55,027 bases of DNA from Sarea resinae (lineage: Eukaryota). Each line of letters begins with the position of its first letter. Position 1 is the stretch's first letter. Where the stretch lies: the NCBI GenBank assembly GCA_026026165.1, contig JAPEUD010000053.1, forward strand, positions 124,001 to 179,027, written 5' to 3'. The position numbers and the translations under genes are program-made. The notes beneath the pieces are model-generated. The model was not told the origin of the DNA. It was given only the letters and a program-made list of their open reading frames with translations, and ran no database searches. Shown one piece after another: positions 32,642 to 49,237 of this stretch.

Positions 32642-33869
32642 CGGCAATTTGTCTCGACCGCCTCTCTTTGTCCGCGCGCCACATTGCCGACTGGCTGATT
32701 GGCTGGCTGACGCCTCGACCCTCTCTCTGCCTGGTAGAGCCTGGATCTTGGACCAGGCCGCAGAGGACTGAAAAGTTAGACGGTGCGATTTGTTGACCTT
32801 TTACACTCCTTGTCATCACGACTACAATTGCAAACATAGGTGAATGACGGTCACATGATTTAGGATCCGTACCAAATTCAACATGTTTCGATACTGATAT
32901 TGACTGACCATCAGATCATCGTCGTCGTTATTATCCCGTCCTGCAACATTGTTCGCTCCTCGTCCCTTGTCGTCTCGTGTCGTTTCGGCTTCTTTGGCGT
33001 CGACTCAGCTCCCGTCTGTCTTCATTCATATTCAGTAGGCCGGCTGTTCGTGTGAGACCTCGTCAATTTCCATTTTTCCCAGCCTACCCACCACGCTCGC
33101 CGTTAACCACCCTCCCAACCGCCCTGTCGCCATCCTCCTCCATGCCATTAACCACCCGAAACAGCCGACATCGACGAAATGAAAACATACAATGTCGTGA
33201 AGTCAATGAAACCATCCGCCCACCGTCATCCCTTCCTTCATTCATTCCTCATAGAAAGAAAAAAAGAAGAAAGAGAGAAAAAAAGAACAGAGCGCGATGA
33301 CACCCTTCCTCCCACTTCCTTCCCCTTTCTCTCATTCCCCCCTTCCGAAATACCAAAGACGAAAAAAAAACACATGGAACCAAAAGACCAAAAGACCAAA
33401 TCAAAAAAAAACCGCGATCACACAGCCGGGGCAAGCCGCCCCCCCCCTCATGGCCTGTGATCCGTTCGGCGATAGCCGTGTTCCTAGATGAATTTGCCTA
33501 TTCTCTTTTTTTCTTTCCTCTTTTCGTCTCCTTTCTTTCTAAGAGAATAGGAATTGAAGAATGGAAATCGAAGAGGGAAAAGGCAAAGCAAGGTCTTCTT
33601 TCTCTGACGTCTCTCTCTCTGTCTCCCTCTCTCTCTCTCTCTCTCTTTCTTTCTTTGTTGATAGGGGAATTAGAAATATCTATCTATCTATCTCTTCATA
33701 CGGGTGGGTCTACGATGTAGCCTGTATCAGTAAAGGAAAGGAGAGGAAAGGAAAGAGAGGAGAAGGTGGCGCAAGACTAAGAGAGGGACGTTCGTTGGGA
33801 CCATGTACATTTCCTTTTTTTTATCTTTGGTTCTGTTCTGGTCTTAGTGTAAGTCTTAGTCTGAATCTT

Positions 33870-35245
33870 GTATGAATTATAATTCTTCTTCTTCTTCTTC
33901 TTCTTCTTCTTCTCTTCTCTTCTCTTAGATGTTTAGTCCAAGGAAAGCTGAGCAGCGCAAAATGAGGCGGGGAAAATTTAGGCAAGGGAAAGCCTTAGGC
34001 AGCAGAGGGGGAGAGAACAGGTGCTAAAGAAGAGAGAAATAGAGAGAGAAGAGAGAAGGAAGAAAGGAAAAAAAGAAGGTATTAGAGTCTATAAGAATAA
34101 ACAGGTAGATAGACAGATAGATTTGTAAGTAGCTAGCTAAACAGCATCTACTCTACATCGACTCTATATCTACATCTACTTTATCTATATCTATATCTAC
34201 GTCTCTAGAAAATAATCAAGAAAAAAAAAGAAGAAGAAGAAAAGGATTAAGTCGGAAAACAGTGTTTTCTTTGTTTTGTTTTCTGTTTTCTGGTTTTTTT
34301 TCTCTCTATTTATCTTTCTACCTCTCTCTCTCTCTCTCTATATCTGTGTCACTTTCTGATTTTCAAGTAGAGATAGAGGTACAGAGTAGAGGTATAGAAG
34401 AGTAGAGTGCAGAGTAGAGTAATTAGAGGAAGTAGGTAGAGTAAGAAGTTTAAGTAGACGACTACTACTACAAAGCTATGATATTATTACCTTATATATT
34501 ATAACAACAACAACTACAACAATAAAAACAATAACATCTATATATATTACATACGTATATATTCCTAAACACCTAAACACCTAAACACCTAAACACCTAA
34601 ACACCTAAACACCTAAACACCTAAACACCTAAACACGTACCTATATATATATCTATATATATACAGAGGTAATATAATGTCGTATCTATTATAAATGCAA
34701 TCAATCAGATTGAATCTAATTACAAGGACTGATAAGAAATACTAATGCTAATACTAAGAAGAAGAATAGTAAAGAGAAGAGAGAGAGAAGAGAGAGAAGA
34801 GAGAGAGAGAGAGCGGAAAAGAGATAGAAGTAGCAGATACAGGAGTAGATAAACAAGCTAATCACCTACCTAGTCCCTCAATACCAGTACACACACACAC
34901 ACACATATATATATATACATACATATCAACCAAAATCCTTGCACTCTTTACCTAAGTAGCCATCGACGTATCTTCCTTCCCAACTAGCTTCCTTACCTAG
35001 TAGCTACCTACCTTATCAAACAGGTAAACCTCCCCCGCAATCGAATTCGCCCGACTAGTTTCGCATCGGTTCTGCAATCCGGCTATGATGGATTGAGGAT
35101 CGTGATAGGAGGGATCGAGAGATAGATGTACTTGGAAAGGTAATAGAGGTTTGGATGTATAGATGTGTATATAGATATCGATATAGATATGTAGAGATAC
35201 GATTGAAGGGGGAGAGGAAAAGAGAAAAGAGAAAGACGGAGCTGA
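33870..35245. other. AT-rich low-complexity tract with mixed microsatellites and RIP-like TpA excess
   Basis: No ORFs from 33876 to 35082; (CTT)n, (AG)n, (TA)n and (CA)n runs; many TAG/CTA/TATA trinucleotides by eye. Confidence 0.7.
34564..34635. repeat. Perfect octamer tandem repeat (CCTAAACA)9 = (TGTTTAGG)9
   Basis: Nine exact copies counted. Confidence 0.95.
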
Positions 35246-37702
35246 CTAGAAGCGCTCTCGGTCTCCGGAAGAGCGGACAGTCCTGCCATTGGACGCCGAT
35301 ACCACTAGCTTCCTGTCGTGGGAGATAGCCACGACTGTAACACTAGCCGTATGACCCTCCAACGTTTGGGCTCCAGCTGTTCCTGCGTCCCAGAGCCTGA
35401 CATTGTTATCATCGGACCCTGATGCCACAACCTTACCGTCCCCAGAGACAGCTACGGCGGGAACACTATCAGTATGGCCATACAGCGTGTTCAACGCTGT
35501 ACCCGTCGTCAGGTCCCATCGTCGAACAGTCTTATCCCATGATGCTGATACCACTAGCTTGTTATCACAAGAGATAGCTATGCCTCTGATAGGGAGCGTG
35601 TGTCCGTCAAGTGTTCGTAGCACCGCGTTCCACTCGCTGGGCACCCTCGGTATTTCATGTATGAAACGGGATATCTGGCTTTGGAAGCAGATGCGACCCT
35701 AGGCTGTTTCCCGGTGCAAGGTCAAGAGCGGAAGAATATGTTTGCAGAGGCGCCTCTTCAACGATAGGACGGCAATAGAGAATGAATCGCTGAGCGTCCT
35801 GAATAAAAGCAAGGAGACGGGGACTGTCCTGAGTCTGGGTTCTCGGGTTAATTGAGGAATGACTCGAATTTGGGCTTCACTCACTGCCACCATAAGTTTC
35901 AATGAAGCTATTGCGTGGGCCGCTTCCAGAGTGACTCTCATGAAGCTCAGAGCTTCAAGCCAATGAAGCAGATGCTTCCGCAAAAATTGATGCACAGGCC
36001 CTTCGTCGAGAAGCATAGCGTTCTCGCTCATGTCATTACTGCTTAGTTCAACATGCTGAACCCAATATTGGCAGGCGTATCGCAGTTCTGGAGGTAGCTG
36101 GTCTGCCACGGGCCCGCCTTGAGCCCCTCCCGCAAGGGTACCTGGTGCTTCCAGGTTACATACATCTTGTCCGAGATGCTCGGACATGAGCTGAATACAA
36201 GCATCCGCGATATTACCGTGTGCCTTGGTCTCGTCCACCCAAAAACGTCGATCATGACACCTCTGCTTGCTATGGAGAAATTCACGAAATGAAGGGTGGC
36301 GCACTCCGACAGGATCCCCTGCCCAGTCGGGAACATCCAAAACAGAATGGAGATGCCGTAGCCTCAAATGTACTGTCGTAACATTCACCGATAGTAGCTT
36401 GGAGATGCTCATAGCAGAGAGAGGTTTGAAGGCAGTGACGAGAGTTCCAATGATGTGTCTAAAAAGGGCAGCAAGCTGCTCCGTATCTTGGCTAGTCTTG
36501 ACATCCCTGAACGAATATTTCAGTATCTGAGAATACATTTCGTCAAGGTCTCTGGTTGGAGATTCGTCGGTGATCATCATATCAAAGGCATTTCTTGGCG
36601 AGGAACCATCCTTGCTCTTGCTCAGAATACAAAGGTCAAGAAGGTCGTCAGCCGGCCATTGATTGCTTCCTTTCTCGATAAATGCGCAGATTGTGGCCGC
36701 ATACATGAACCAACCCTGAGCTTTCTCAACGAGGAGTTTGATTTTGTCATCGCCTGGCCAGCTCAATGGCATTGGATACTCCAATGTCTCCCGGACTTTA
36801 TGTAATCTGTGAATAAAGAAACTCGAAATATCATTGTTGACAATAGTCGGCGAGATTTGATCAAGGGCATATTCCAGGTGCCAAACCCCTGGCATATCAC
36901 AAAAGCCAAGACGAACCGGGAGCTCCGGTCTACTAGTGACGAATATGCGCAACCGAATTGGTCCAATCAGTCTGGATTCAGCCAAGAGCTGGAGGATCAT
37001 CTTGACGTCTTTGTCGTTCTCGCACTCGTCCAACGCGTCGATTACAAGGATTAGTGGCGATCGGCATGAATCAGCCATCAAGCTGGAAAGTGGCTGAAGG
37101 ATAAGAAGCTTCCATTGTTCGGCAAGGCTCCGGTCAGATATATCGGTGTGCTTGGATGCCACTGTGCGGATACGTTCTTCCAGTGAAGATGATATACTCG
37201 CCAACTGCATAGCAATAGTGGTGAAGAACTTTTCCGTGTGGCTTCGATCGACAGTTCCTCTAGAGAAGAAAAAACTGGCTCCAAGGCGATTCTGGTCATA
37301 GTATTTCCGCGCTATTGTGCGTGCGATAGTGGACTTCCCTGCGCCTGCTGAGCCGTGCAACCAGAAAATGCATCTTTCATCTTGTCCCTCAGCCCATCTC
37401 ATGATCTCATTGCGGACTTCTGATCGAGTGTTGCTGTAGCAAAGAGGAACATGCTGTCGGATGGCCGCGCCAAAAGACGCCTGGGGAGTACATGGTAGCT
37501 CCTGGAGCGGGCCTTGTTCTAATCAACGCAATTAGCACTCTTAATTCATCTCTTCCCTTCCTGACAGCAGCTGACTGGTAATGAACGTATGTCCATTGTG
37601 AACCCTATTATCATGACCGCTGATCCGATGCCCTTGCCATTGATCCTCAGACCATGTCAGAGGGCGAGATTGGGTTAGCATCGGATCGTTGGGATATGCC
37701 AT
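35246..37702 (-). pseudogene. NACHT-WD40 NLR (NWD2/HET-E-like) with N-terminal amyloid-like motif; frameshifted and truncated in the WD40 region as assembled
   Basis: Exon 1 37702-37576; intron 37575-37519 (GTCAGC..GCTAAT..TAG); exon 2 37518-35885 with Walker A GSAGAGKS, LGASFFF, Walker B LVIDALDEC, FVTSRPE, HPSFREFL, LHWLEALS; intron 35884-35835; exon 3 has a 1-nt frameshift at ~35699-35696 and then about 2.7 WD40 repeats ending at 35246. Confidence 0.85.
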
Positions 37703-38006
37703 CGACGAATATGGCGGTTACGAAAGGAACTGGCACTCTCGACATTGGTGTGATGTCTCTATCAGTGCTGGTGGAGAGGGCATTTGGAGAATATTGCACT
37801 GGATCTTGAGTGGACTTCCCAACATGGTCGTTTCGGCTGAACCAAACGAGGCTGCATATTCAGTCTCGGTCGTGCCGCAGGCCTACATTAATAGTAGCGA
37901 ATTCCCTGTATATATCATCATCACATCTTGTCGTCTTGGCCAGAAACATGACCCTTGCGGGCCCTTTTTGCCTTTGCAGTGCTCGGCTTGGATACACTGC
38001 CGAGAG
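37703..38006. promoter_or_regulatory. Probable bidirectional promoter shared by the NLR and the HET-S-like gene
   Basis: 304 bp between divergent ATGs at 37702 (-) and 38007 (+); inferred from arrangement only. Confidence 0.55.
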
Positions 38007-38861
38007 ATGACAGATCCGTTCGGTATTGTCCCTGGCGCTTTTAGTATCGCTGCGGCCTTCACTACCTGCGTCGACTGCTTCGAGTACGTTCAACTCGGGC
38101 GGCATCTCGGACGAGACTTCCGGAGATACCAGCTCACGCTCAACTGCGCCCGGCTCCGTCTTTCGCGATGGGGACAGGCCGTCGATATCTACAACGACCC
38201 AAATCTCGGCAATCCAAGGGCAACCCGGACGGAGCTCCAGACCGCGCAGAATACCTTGTTTCAGATCCTCGTTCTGTTCGCAGACTCGGAAGCGATCTCG
38301 AAAAGTGACCAAGTGAACATGATGGCTGCTGAGGATGTTAACATTGATCCCGCTGGAGATATGGACTCCAAGCTCCTCGCAATCAATAGGAAAATGAGAC
38401 TGCTGGCGATGAAACGTCGGAAGGGCAGTAGTCTCTTGCACACCACGAGGTGGGCGCTTTATCACCGCACCCAACTCAAAGATCTCGTCGCAAATATAAT
38501 CCGATTGATTGATCATCTTGAGTATCTTTTCCCAGGAGGAACCTCTGAATCAGAGCTCGTGAGGCAGGAGATTGCACAACTTGCAGAAGGGCAGGACAAA
38601 CAGACGCTCGCGCTTGTTGAGGATGCTTCGCAGGATGTGGACAGCTTGCTTCAGAAAACGATCAGAGACGCCCGCACGGGCCATCAATATTCGAATATCC
38701 AGGTCCGAGGTCAAGCTCATAATGGAGATTCGTTTAGTGATGGATGGGCCGGGAATGCAACAGGAGGATTTCATATATATGACGGCATAGTAGTGGAAAC
38801 AGGTTCGAGGGCTCTGAATGGAAATAAATATAGGGGAAAGGATTTCTGGGATTCGAGTTAG
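38007..38861 (+). CDS. het-S: HET-S-like protein: HeLo pore-forming domain plus two-repeat prion-forming domain, 284 aa
   Basis: MTDPFGIVPGAFSIAAAFTTCVDCFEYVQLGRH..RLRLSRWGQAV closely parallels the Podospora HET-S N-terminus; C-terminal pseudo-repeats end in GNKYRGKDFWD (compare HET-s GNEYGGKGFWD). Intronless. Confidence 0.93.
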   Translation: MTDPFGIVPGAFSIAAAFTTCVDCFEYVQLGRHLGRDFRRYQLTLNCARLRLSRWGQAVDIYNDPNLGNPRATRTELQTAQNTLFQILVLFADSEAISKSDQVNMMAAEDVNIDPAGDMDSKLLAINRKMRLLAMKRRKGSSLLHTTRWALYHRTQLKDLVANIIRLIDHLEYLFPGGTSESELVRQEIAQLAEGQDKQTLALVEDASQDVDSLLQKTIRDARTGHQYSNIQVRGQAHNGDSFSDGWAGNATGGFHIYDGIVVETGSRALNGNKYRGKDFWDSS

Positions 38862-39580
38862 CCATGAGTTGAGGCGATCTGTATGTAGTCTGTAATTTCA
38901 CCGACACGCTCCTCAGGCGGCTTCTTCGTGAAGATTAGCCAGCTCTTGGGGGTTATCAGGGTAGGTTAGAGTGTACAAAGATTCACTCCATTCCATTCCC
39001 ATGAAGCCAACGCGAATCGACAAAGCCACAAGACAACAGTCACGGGAAATTCGATCGCTTGATCGATGGGTACTTGATCAATTGATAGAACAAGGCAGTT
39101 TTTTAATATAGTGACTATACACTAGCGGCGCTAACGAAAGTATCCTGCGCCATGCATACCCCAAATCATGCCCTATTCAACTCCGCTCAACTCCAAGCCA
39201 AAATCCGTGTGGCTAAACCGAGTAGGTTCTTTTCTTCCCTTCCTGTTCTTCGTATCCTCTGCTTTCAAAGAGAGAGGAGCCAGAAAAGGAGAAACGGAAA
39301 AAGCGACCTTTTGAAAGGGAAAAATTACAAGAAAGACACAGGCCCCAAACAAGCCAAAGCCAATCCGGCCTGTTCCTGATACCAATGCAGTAGAGTAATC
39401 AAACAGACTACCAGCCAAACTACCAAAGCTCCGACTTCCCAACCAGTCAATCAGTCGACCAACGTAGAAACCCAACTCCCAGGACCCCATGACGCAAGCC
39501 TACCTACTCCATTCGCTTGGTAATTCATTCGTTAACGATATAGTCGAGAAAAGGCTCCGTATGAATAACATCTCGCCCAC

Positions 39581-47029: not shown

Positions 47030-49237
47030 ATGTTTCGCGCGCTGGCCAGAAACCGTTTTCCATCTTCCGTCTTCAAAGCCTCTCTCAGCTCGACGCGCAC
47101 CACCCCCAGCCAGGTACGAGATGCTGATCCCACGCCGTTGGACCGAGAGCTGGACTGATCATGATGACAGATAGTCAGAATGGCACCCGCAAGCAAGCGG
47201 AGCAACAGCTCCTCGGCGCTTCCTGCAGGTTCGTGGTCCCGTGAAGCCCCGCTGGTCCGGAATGTACTCTGGCAGCAGCAGCCCTGATGCTGAGATTGAC
47301 CGTCTTCCAGGCTACCGAGAAGACAAGTCGAAACCGCCCATGCTTCGGTTCGAAGAGTCTCTTCCGAAGCTGCCCGTGCCCGACCTACAAGAAACGGCCG
47401 ATCGCTACCTCAAATCCGTCCACCCTCTCCTGAGCCCGTCCGAATACGAAAACACCAAGAAGGCAGTCGAGGACTTTGTCAAGCCGGGTGGCCTCGGGCA
47501 GACGCTACAGAAGAGATTGCTGGCGAGACGGGACGACCCCAAGATCACGAACTGGATTTACGAATGGTGGAATCATGCAGCGTACCTGGCCTATCGTGAT
47601 CCGGTGGTTCCCTACGTCAGCTACTTTTACTCATACCGAGACGACCGACGCCGTCGGAACCCCGCCAAACGAGCAGCGGCCATCACGACGGCGGCGCTCG
47701 AGTTCAAACGACAGGTCGACGATGGCACACTGGAGCCAGACTACATGAGGAAGCTGCCGATCGCCATGTCAAGCTTGGTGTACATGTTCAATACTTCTCG
47801 TGTCCCAGCGAGACCGGCCGATCATGCTGTCAAATACGACTTCAAGGACCACCGGTACATCGTCGTGATCCGGAAGAATCAGTTCTTCAAGGTGCCCACG
47901 GAGGTCGACGGGAAGCAATTGAACACTTCGGAGCTGGAGCAGCAATTCCGGGCCATCTACGAAAAGGCCGAGAAGAGCCCGGCAGTGGGTGCCCTGACGT
48001 CTGAGAACCGCGATGTGTGGACCGACGTAAGTCCTAAATATTTGGCTTCCTTTGTCCTTAAGCTGACGGTGTCCAGGCTCGCCAAATCCTACTTGATGCG
48101 AACACGGCCAACAAGGCGACCCTTGAGACGATTGAAGCTGCGTCTTTCATCGTCTGCCTCGACGATGCGAAACCCGTGACTCTCGAAGAGCGATCGCACC
48201 AGTACTGGCACGGAGACGGATCCAACCGCTGGTACGACAAGCCCCTTCAATTCATCATCAACGACAATGGCACTGCCGGCTTCCTCGGTGAACACTCAAT
48301 GATGGATGGAATGCCCACGCACCGTCTGAACGACTATGTCAACATGCTCATCTTCGGCAACAAGCTCGACTTTGAGAACCCGTCGATCCGCTCCAACGTC
48401 CCCGAGCCCCGCCCCATCAAATTTCACATCACCAAGGAGGTTCAAGAAGAAATCTCTCGCGCACAGAAGGACTTTGAAAACGTCATCGGCCAGCACGAAC
48501 TCCGCGTGCAGGCGTACCAAGGCTACGGAAAGGGTTTAATCAAGAAATTCAAGTGCTCACCCGACGCGTACGTCCAGATGGTCATCCAACTGGCGTACCA
48601 CAAGATGTACGGCAAGAACCGCCCCACGTACGAATCGGCCGCCACTCGGCGCTTCCAACAAGGCCGCACCGAGACCTGCCGAACGGTATCGGACGAGAGC
48701 GTGGCCTTTTGCAACGCCATGGCCGACCACTCGACGCCGCCCGAGAAGTGCGAAGAGCTCTTCCGCAAGGCGCTCAAGACGCACGTGCAATACATCAGCG
48801 ACGCCTCGGACGGACGGGGAGTCGACCGCCACCTCTTTGGTCTCAAGATGCTGCTGCAGGACGGCGAGGAGCTCCCGGCTCTCTACAAGGACCCGGCGTA
48901 TTCGTACAGCAGCAGTTGGTATATCAGCAGCAGCCAGCTGAGCTCCGAATACTTTAACGGCTACGGCTGGAGTCAGGTCATCGATGATGGCTGGGGTATC
49001 GCGTACATGATTAACGAGAACAGGTGAGTTTTTTCTTCCTTTGGCTCCGATACGAGGGCCCTGGGGATGCGAGAACCGGTTTTGCTAATCTCCATCGCCC
49101 TCCCCTCTAGCATCCAATTCAACGTCGTCAGCAAAGGCCTCGGAAGCGAGCGAATGAGCTTCTACCTCAACGAGGCCGCCGGCGATATCAGGGATCTCCT
49201 CTTGCCGTCCCTCGAGGCGCCCAAGGCGAAGCTGTAG
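47030..49237 (+). CDS. CAT2: Carnitine O-acetyltransferase, mitochondrial/peroxisomal (Cat2/AcuJ type)
   Basis: Introns 47114-47170, 47229-47310, 48027-48076, 49024-49110. Motifs LPKLPVPDL, NRWYDKPLQ, GEHSMMDG, TYESAATRRFQQGRTE, GRGVDRHLFGL; C-terminal PTS1 AKL. Confidence 0.96.

Follow-up and report, generated by a model that had tools for sequence, protein, structure and literature searches.

A putative amyloid-signalling gene pair was analysed in a stretch of 55,027 nucleotides from Sarea resinae (GenBank assembly GCA_026026165.1, contig JAPEUD010000053.1, positions 124,001 to 179,027), which is ascomycete DNA and is referred to below as the window. The pair occupies positions 35246..38861, an interval that runs exactly from the stop codon of a WD40 reading frame on the minus strand to the stop codon of a HET-S-like effector gene on the plus strand; between them lies the start of a NOD-like receptor (NLR) gene with a NACHT domain, the presumed sensor, which diverges from the effector. 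The original prediction, made from the sequence of the window, had described a head-to-head NLR and effector pair parted by a 304-bp spacer, a distance confirmed here as that between the two start codons (37703..38006). The effector side of the locus comprises the following features:

37703..38006, no strand: divergent spacer of 304 bp, presumed to hold a shared promoter
38007..38861, plus strand: coding sequence of the HET-S-like effector, 284 amino acids and a stop codon, intronless
38022..38588, plus strand: HeLo pore-forming domain, residues 6-194 (PF14479, E = 2.1e-42)
38679..38735, plus strand: amyloid pseudo-repeat r1, residues 225-243, GHQYSNIQVRGQAHNGDSF
38769..38831, plus strand: amyloid pseudo-repeat r2, residues 255-275, FHIYDGIVVETGSRALNGNKY
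38835-38858, plus strand: GKDFWDSS tail following r2

The effector was colinear with 119 homologues across 99-100% of its own length, and it opens with the MxxxFG start common to approximately 104 of them. The plus-strand HeLo gene named in the original prediction was recovered by the HeLo profile (PF14479, E = 2.1e-42), and the solved HET-s/HET-S structures matched residues 1-216 (PDB 2wvn_A, E = 2.4e-41; 2wvo, E = 1.6e-39), a homology that is decisive for the predicted HeLo fold. At the equivalent of position 33, the effector carries His (GRHLGRD), the residue present in 91 of 107 pattern-matched homologues, none of which has Pro at this site; His marks the toxic HET-S form here, and Pro the non-toxic HET-s form. 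The family is large, with 246 matches at E <= 1e-3 among 1120 candidates; the best non-self identity was 58%, and Pseudogymnoascus proteins are among the closest homologues (50-58% identity). Of the 60 columns with 95% or higher conservation across the 119 homologues, the effector retained 54, the changes being E3D, F34L, T40R, Q138R, A208S, and G276R against a family median of one. This makes it the most deviant full-length member; only two of the 119 homologues, both of them fragments, reach six changes. All invariant columns of a 25-sequence alignment were retained.

Two further observations concern the N-terminus of the effector. Residue 9, located in the N-terminal helix, is Pro (38031-38033, IVPGAF), and the equivalent residue in 83 pattern-matched homologues is Ala in 67, Ser in 12, Thr in 2, Gly in 1, and Val in 1, with Pro in none. 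An upstream in-frame ATG at 37824, within the spacer, is the start of the database gene model P0003 (345 amino acids), which places 61 additional residues (37824-38006) ahead of the HeLo N-terminus. Because about 104 of the 119 homologues begin directly at MxxxFG, this extension is probably an annotation artefact; if the ATG at 37824 were transcribed, the extension would stand ahead of the membrane-inserting helix.

The C-terminal prion-forming domain (PFD) was detected with profiles built from the homologues. The r1 profile (118 segments) matched the effector at E = 5.3e-12 and the r2 profile (116 segments) at E = 2.8e-9, and no other of the 1925 stop-to-stop open reading frames (ORFs) of the window fell below E 3 with either. 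The C-termini of the homologues share GHQY.N..I.G.A..GD.. and ..SH.YDG..V...GKAL.GNKYGGKDFWD. The Pfam family HET-s_218-289 (PF11558) gave no match at E <= 10 with the whole effector or with residues 215-284, and the HET-s PFD (2kj3) aligned weakly with the r2 region (E = 0.16); among the profile searches proposed with the original prediction, those for the repeats were thus positive with homologue profiles and negative with HET-s_218-289. It appears that PF11558 is specific for the canonical motif of class 1 of the HET-s-related amyloid motifs (HRAM1). HRAMs are described as pseudo-repeats of approximately 21 residues with Gly at position 19, Arg or Lys at position 15, and hydrophobic core positions (PMC4518210), and the signature at position 3 is given as His for HRAM3, Asn for HRAM1, and Gln for HRAM2 (PMC4518210). 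Under this numbering, r2 shows H3, Y5, I8, V10, R15, A16, and G19, with Asn at core position 18, and position 3 is His in both r1 (G-H-Q-Y) and r2 (F-H-I-Y). Judged by our own numbering against the published description, and not by the authors' profiles, the effector PFD is assigned to the HRAM3 type.

The residue ahead of the conserved Gly is Asn in r1 (HNG), in r2 (LNG), and also in the short N-terminal motif of the sensor, termed R0 (HNG). Of 116 homologues, 8 have Asn at position 18 of both repeats, 1 has it only in r2, none has it only in r1, and 107 lack it altogether; this co-occurrence between r1 and r2 has a Fisher p of 1.4e-11, uncorrected for relatedness. The locus had been credited with its own motif variant; the Asn before Gly is real, but it is not unique, since those 8 homologues carry it in both repeats.

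On the sensor side, all features lie on the minus strand, as follows:

37576..37702, minus strand: NLR exon 1, 42 codons and 1 nt, encoding MAYPNDPMLTQSRPLTWSEDQWQGHRISGHDNRVHNGHTFIT, with the start codon at 37702
37583-37648, minus strand: R0-like motif in NLR exon 1, EDQWQGHRISGHDNRVHNGHTF
37519..37575, minus strand: NLR intron 1, 57 nt, phase 1, GTCAGC...TTAG, with a GCTAAT branch-like site
35885..37518, minus strand: NLR exon 2, with NACHT/NPHP3_N at approximately 36929-37408 and a helical NACHT-associated region
37331-37354, minus strand: Walker A motif GSAGAGKS in exon 2
37025-37048, minus strand: Walker B motif LVIDALDE in exon 2
35835..35884, minus strand: NLR intron 2, 50 nt, GTGAGT...CCCAG
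35693..35702, minus strand: site of a +1 frameshift, CTAGGGTCGC as read on the minus strand
35249..35605, minus strand: remnant WD40 array (PF00400, E = 2.6e-29, three stretches), with the stop of its frame at 35246-35248

The NLR was identified by its NPHP3_N (E = 9.3e-33) and NACHT (E = 2.1e-9) profiles, and its predicted splicing rests on comparison with related loci. A GT..AG phase-1 intron stands at the site of intron 1, directly after the N-terminal motif, in 7 of 7 related metagenomic loci, four of which share the A|GTCAG donor, and an intron at the position of intron 2 was present in all five related loci that extend there. Removal of intron 2 restores colinearity (..SLKLMVA|TQDSPRLLAFIQDAQRF..), and with both introns removed, the NLR is colinear with seven orthologous NLRs. 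The joining of exon 1 to the NACHT exon, on which the original prediction depended, is consistent with the conservation of the predicted intron 1 in all seven loci. An N-terminal effector domain would not fit, since exon 1 comprises only 42 codons and no more than 39 residues of exon 2 precede the start of the NACHT-associated profile; this agrees with the earlier description of an NLR lacking such a domain.

Downstream of intron 2, the reading frame of the NLR is interrupted. It continues as ..FIQDAQRFILYCRPIVEEAPLQTYSSALDLAPGNSL, then as GSHLLPKPDIPFHT, and terminates with the TGA codon 35655-35657; the spliced product has 646 amino acids and no WD40 repeats. The homologous sequence (G)RICFQSQISRFIHEIPRVPSEWNAVLRTLDGH.. 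resumes in another frame from 35693-35702, which places the +1 frameshift within conserved coding sequence; in related loci, a single frame continues past this site and on into the WD repeats. The WD40 remnant, out of frame with the NACHT region, consists of two full repeats and a third that is cut after ..GRTVR and followed by SSGDRERF and a stop codon. Orthologous NLRs carry 8-14 WD repeats versus three here, no WD homology was found below 35258 by tblastn, and three repeats cannot close a propeller. The minus-strand NACHT-WD40 gene of the original prediction therefore stands in part: both the NACHT and the WD40 sequences are present, but they do not form one open frame, and the repeats number three.

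The lesion was examined in the Logan contigs of sequencing run X1, which may itself be the source of the assembly. X1 was the one run to contain this DNA, with next to none of the sampled words present in runs X2 and X3. Two contigs, 35165-35824 (depth 363) and 35795-39000 (depth 350), showed 0 differences; because they agree base for base, the frameshift is present in the reads, and a 1-nt sequencing error at this site is unlikely. The loose ends of the X1 contigs carry adaptor-like sequence, which we take to be the Illumina Nextera adaptor and which would make a 1-nt error unlikely. A collapse of WD repeats in the assembly was ruled out by the flat depth (363 vs. 350) and by the absence of a tandem-repeat signal; the WD units are too dissimilar to score as a tandem repeat (35246-35700). 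An alternative 52-nt intron (GTCGCA...CCGAG) that would restore the frame was also rejected, since it would delete RICFQSQISRFIHEIPR, 17 conserved residues aligned with the orthologues; its donor is poor, with no G at +5, and there is no branch-like site.

Regarding the N-terminal motif of the sensor, the exon 1 sequence aligns at the position of R0 in orthologous NLRs. The first half of the motif, H.Y..I.I in orthologues, is DQWQGHRI here and is accompanied by a one-residue insertion, and motif position 3 is Asp or His, depending on the alignment. Against the family profiles of R0, r1, and r2, exon 1 scored 1.0, -1.6, and -2.6 bits, respectively, so R0 in exon 1 went undetected by these three profiles, which do find the effector. 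When exon 1 was aligned with the PFD of its own partner, the Smith-Waterman score was 32, a value that 145 of 5000 shuffles reached, as did 14 of 1309 other 42-amino-acid pieces of the window. The resemblance to R0 is plausible by position and descent and weak in itself. The resemblance of the NLR N-terminus to the effector repeats, as claimed in the original prediction, is likewise weak: the position and the second half fit the R0 of orthologues, and the profiles give about 0-1 bit.

The NLRs adjoining orthologous effectors bear a clear N-terminal R0, for example GHHYRDNNISGGQAHLGNTYYI, GNQYRNIRINEGAKAQLGNIYHI, and RHRYKDIRISGGAKAHLGDTYHL. A profile made from the R0 of ten orthologous NLRs matched the effector of the window at E = 5.3e-4 (1925 ORFs), which indicates that the effector is of the kind addressed by such motifs. 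One public model departs from this pattern: P0154, a Trichoglossum hirsutum NLR at a locus tag beside the HeLo protein P0039, has an annotated N-terminus, MVKLNSETLTITVRLNQ.., that differs from the expected R0. Near-identical metagenomic loci (L025:474-1033 and L008) encode MAGHEREV.SQGG.NFQGVHVYGKAQLGNTYYFG upstream of the first intron. The N-terminus of P0154 looks like a wrong-frame read-through of the conserved first intron, in which case the public model hides the R0 motif.

The pairing of the two genes recurs in other fungi, and the search for synteny in relatives suggested with the original prediction thus returned the same head-to-head layout. HeLo and NLR genes have consecutive locus tags in Trichoglossum hirsutum, Agyrium rufum, Chlorociboria aeruginascens, and a Pseudogymnoascus, and they share a contig in Hyaloscypha. 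Among 50 metagenomic loci, 8 have a divergent NACHT gene directly upstream of the effector, and the ATG-to-ATG spacers in related loci span 261-436 bp (seven measured). Among the close metagenomic relatives, 17 extend at least 1 kb upstream of the effector; the divergent NACHT gene was directly adjacent in 7 of these and about 3 kb away in 1. The eighth directly adjacent case, L006, falls outside these 17, its upstream sequence being only 616 bp long. In other relatives, the effector is flanked by unrelated genes, by transposase genes, or by an NB-ARC/TPR gene. Adjacency of effector and NLR is therefore common and not universal, and orphan effectors are not rare. These comparisons support descent of the locus from amyloid-signalling pairs of the HET-S/NWD2 type.

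Transposase-like ORFs (Tc5 HTH, DDE_1) were seen beside orphan effectors at L014:1055-4568 and L002:1859-2491, and in L014 such an ORF lies between the effector and the NB-ARC/TPR gene 3 kb upstream. In-frame stops occur in the R0 of L022 (651-1104), in the effector prion-forming region of L009, L016, and L032, and throughout the effector of L027. They reflect either module decay in other fungi or read errors.

Sequence divergence was compared in small, hand-picked cross-class sets, in which the effector had a median identity of 54% to the comparators, versus 64% among the comparators themselves, and the NLR 46% versus 57%. Each of the two genes was more diverged than any comparator pair, whereas the saccharopine dehydrogenase of the window, used as a control, showed a median identity of 79% to other classes and 77% among classes. 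Since their divergence exceeds that of the comparators and that of the housekeeping enzyme does not, both partners have evolved fast in this lineage, through either relaxed constraint or immune-type diversification.

The mechanism established in Podospora (PMC3321046, PMC4344463, PMC5485727, PMC4518210) offers a frame for these observations. In intact orthologues, binding of a ligand to the WD40 propeller would let the NACHT domain oligomerise, as it does in Podospora; the clustered N-terminal R0 motifs would then fold cooperatively into a beta-solenoid rung, and this rung would template r1 and r2 of the HeLo protein encoded alongside. Once the PFD had folded, the HeLo N-terminal helix would be free to enter the membrane, leading to cell death. 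In the genome studied here, all sequence parts of the receiving end are in place: the effector keeps the HeLo domain with the position-33 His, both repeats (r1 and r2), and the FW loop at its C-terminus. The sensor has a partly eroded R0 and lacks an in-frame ligand-binding domain.

We consider it likely that this is an HRAM3-type HET-S/NWD2 locus whose effector is intact and whose sensor is decayed or non-functional. Most likely, the NLR is unable to serve as a trigger gated by ligand, which would leave the effector without a partner. Such an orphan effector may be silent, or it may respond solely to another NLR elsewhere in the genome that has a compatible motif. The domain content, the comparative gene model, the lesions, and the recurrence of the pair in other fungi are observations of this analysis; the loss of sensor function and all of the biochemistry are inferred. 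The known HET-S/NWD2-type architecture proposed in the original prediction is borne out by the HeLo domain with its two-repeat PFD, the conserved head-to-head layout, and intron 1. Its reading of this particular instance as a working immune or allorecognition pair is not supported, given a frameshifted sensor with three repeats, an R0 eroded in its first half, and the lack of a HET-s_218-289 match.

Several points weigh against a decayed sensor. The NACHT exon is open for 607 codons with both Walker A and Walker B intact, which implies that the lesion would be young or that the NACHT part would be under selection. WD-less NWD2 constructs are described as still inducing the prion, independently of ligand, when strongly expressed in yeast (PMC4344463), so the 646-amino-acid product is not necessarily inert. 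The second half of R0, RVHNGHTF, fits the K/R-A-H/Q-L-G-N/D-T-Y of the orthologues, and the Asn shared by R0, r1, and r2 suggests that sensor and effector co-evolved in the past, until recently. Finally, if run X1 is the source of the assembly, the agreement between the two is not an independent confirmation of the frameshift.

An alternative is that the truncated 646-amino-acid R0-NACHT protein is expressed and signals without ligand gating, for example in dependence on dose or stress, or that it dominantly regulates related NLRs or acts as their decoy. In its favour, the gene has kept its promoter-proximal part, with exon 1, both conserved introns, and NACHT, and in yeast the need for ligand is bypassed by WD-less NWD2 (PMC4344463); however, the first half of R0 is eroded, and an NLR that templated constitutively next to an intact, toxic HeLo protein should kill its own cell, which renders this alternative unlikely. 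Selection against a constitutive sensor next to a toxic effector fits a dead sensor or a non-templating R0. It is similarly unlikely that the locus is a natural snapshot of module disassembly, in which the sensor has lost ligand control and part of its templating rung, and a private Asn-ladder HRAM3 effector is either en route to a het-s-like prion or allorecognition function or now answers to an NLR encoded elsewhere.

Also unlikely, in our judgement, is that the whole module is a relic in which the effector is also drifting towards loss of function. Such drift would account for the effector being the most deviant full-length member of its family, with 6 of 60 conserved columns changed against a median of 1, for Pro9 in the N-terminal helix (0 of 83 pattern-matched homologues), and for the divergence of both genes beyond their comparators when the housekeeping enzyme does not diverge, and relatives with in-frame stops do exist. 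Nevertheless, the ORF of 284 codons runs uninterrupted over its full length, most of the six changes are conservative, every invariant column of the 25-sequence alignment is kept, and diversifying selection on an immune module would also give fast evolution.

Equally improbable is a fully functional pair, with the frameshift a sequencing or consensus error or a private variant and the short WD array sufficient: a long intact NACHT ORF with Walker motifs, a frameshift in a run of three G, supporting reads that may share a data set with the assembly, a partial R0 match, and Asn before Gly in all three rungs are in its favour, but independently built contigs agree base for base at a k-mer depth of about 360, the WD region has single-copy depth (363 vs. 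350) with no collapsed repeats, three repeats cannot close a propeller for which orthologues use 8-14, and R0 fails the family profiles.

When compared to known systems, the locus resembles het-S/nwd2 of Podospora anserina (HRAM1), in which a HeLo protein with a two-repeat amyloid motif adjoins a divergent NACHT-WD40 NLR that bears a short N-terminal motif (PMC3321046, PMC4344463). The likeness extends to the HeLo domain (E = 2.4e-41) and the His at the position-33 equivalent. In contrast to het-S/nwd2, the spacer measures 304 bp instead of 0.6 kb, the PFD has diverged (2kj3, E = 0.16; PF11558, no match) and bears the His signature of HRAM3 in place of the Asn of HRAM1, and the NLR is broken. 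In this last respect, our locus is similar to the het-s haplotype of P. anserina, which likewise combines an intact gene on the effector side with an inactivated NLR beside it; nwd2 is described as a pseudogene in all wild het-s strains (PMC3321046, PMC4344463). The two cases differ in the lesion, a repa transposon scar in nwd2 versus a frameshift and loss of WD repeats here, and in the effector: the het-s haplotype has lost HeLo toxicity (Pro33), which allows the prion, whereas the S. resinae effector keeps His33.

Regarding HRAM3 itself, six such motifs are listed for Pseudogymnoascus (Table 1 of PMC4518210), and a pair of this class is exemplified by W9WR11/W9XJW2 of Cladophialophora psammophila (legend to Fig. 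3 of PMC5485727). As in HRAM3 pairs, both repeats open with G/S-H-x-Y, position 15 is R/K, position 16 is small or hydrophobic, and position 19 is Gly; unlike them, r1, r2, and R0 carry Asn instead of a hydrophobic residue at position 18. Both the architecture and the diversification of HRAMs have already been published (PMC3321046, PMC4518210). The locus is therefore a further HET-S/NWD2 amyloid-signalling pair and not a new system, and the main new point is the broken sensor. Among the papers listed in literature searches on Sarea resinae and the Sareomycetes, none dealt with NLR or HeLo genes of this fungus.

The surroundings of the pair agree with the housekeeping neighbourhood noted in the original prediction. 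The annotated neighbours include genes for GH71, a protein kinase, Ric8, Rif1, MAT1, and a Cep57-like protein, as well as carnitine acyltransferase, diphthamide synthesis, and saccharopine dehydrogenase. The carnitine/choline acyltransferase gene (47175-49024) appears as two overlapping ORFs in different frames, covering profile positions 1-235 and 230-548, a split presumed to be caused by a short intron. One further feature borders the sensor:

33300..35245, no strand: low-GC, microsatellite-rich block with a GC content of 0.33-0.45 and AG, TA, AC, and CCTAAACA arrays

This block of about 2 kb directly adjoins the truncated 3' end of the NLR gene, and within it, at 34564-34636, lies a perfect 8-bp tandem array of CCTAAACA with 9.1 copies and 100% matches.

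These results extend the HET-S/NWD2 pair to another lineage, that of Sarea resinae, and add to Podospora het-s/nwd2 a second natural case in which the HeLo executioner is intact and the sensor next to it inactivated; in other respects, such a locus is nothing unusual in a filamentous ascomycete. A small, testable hypothesis on seeding specificity follows from the coupled Asn at core position 18, and if the locus were indeed a snapshot of module disassembly, the Asn18 variant would set a seeding barrier against canonical HRAM3 paralogues. Should intact and broken alleles of the sensor segregate among isolates, the locus would offer a simple system for studying how such modules are disarmed and whether orphan effectors can still be triggered.

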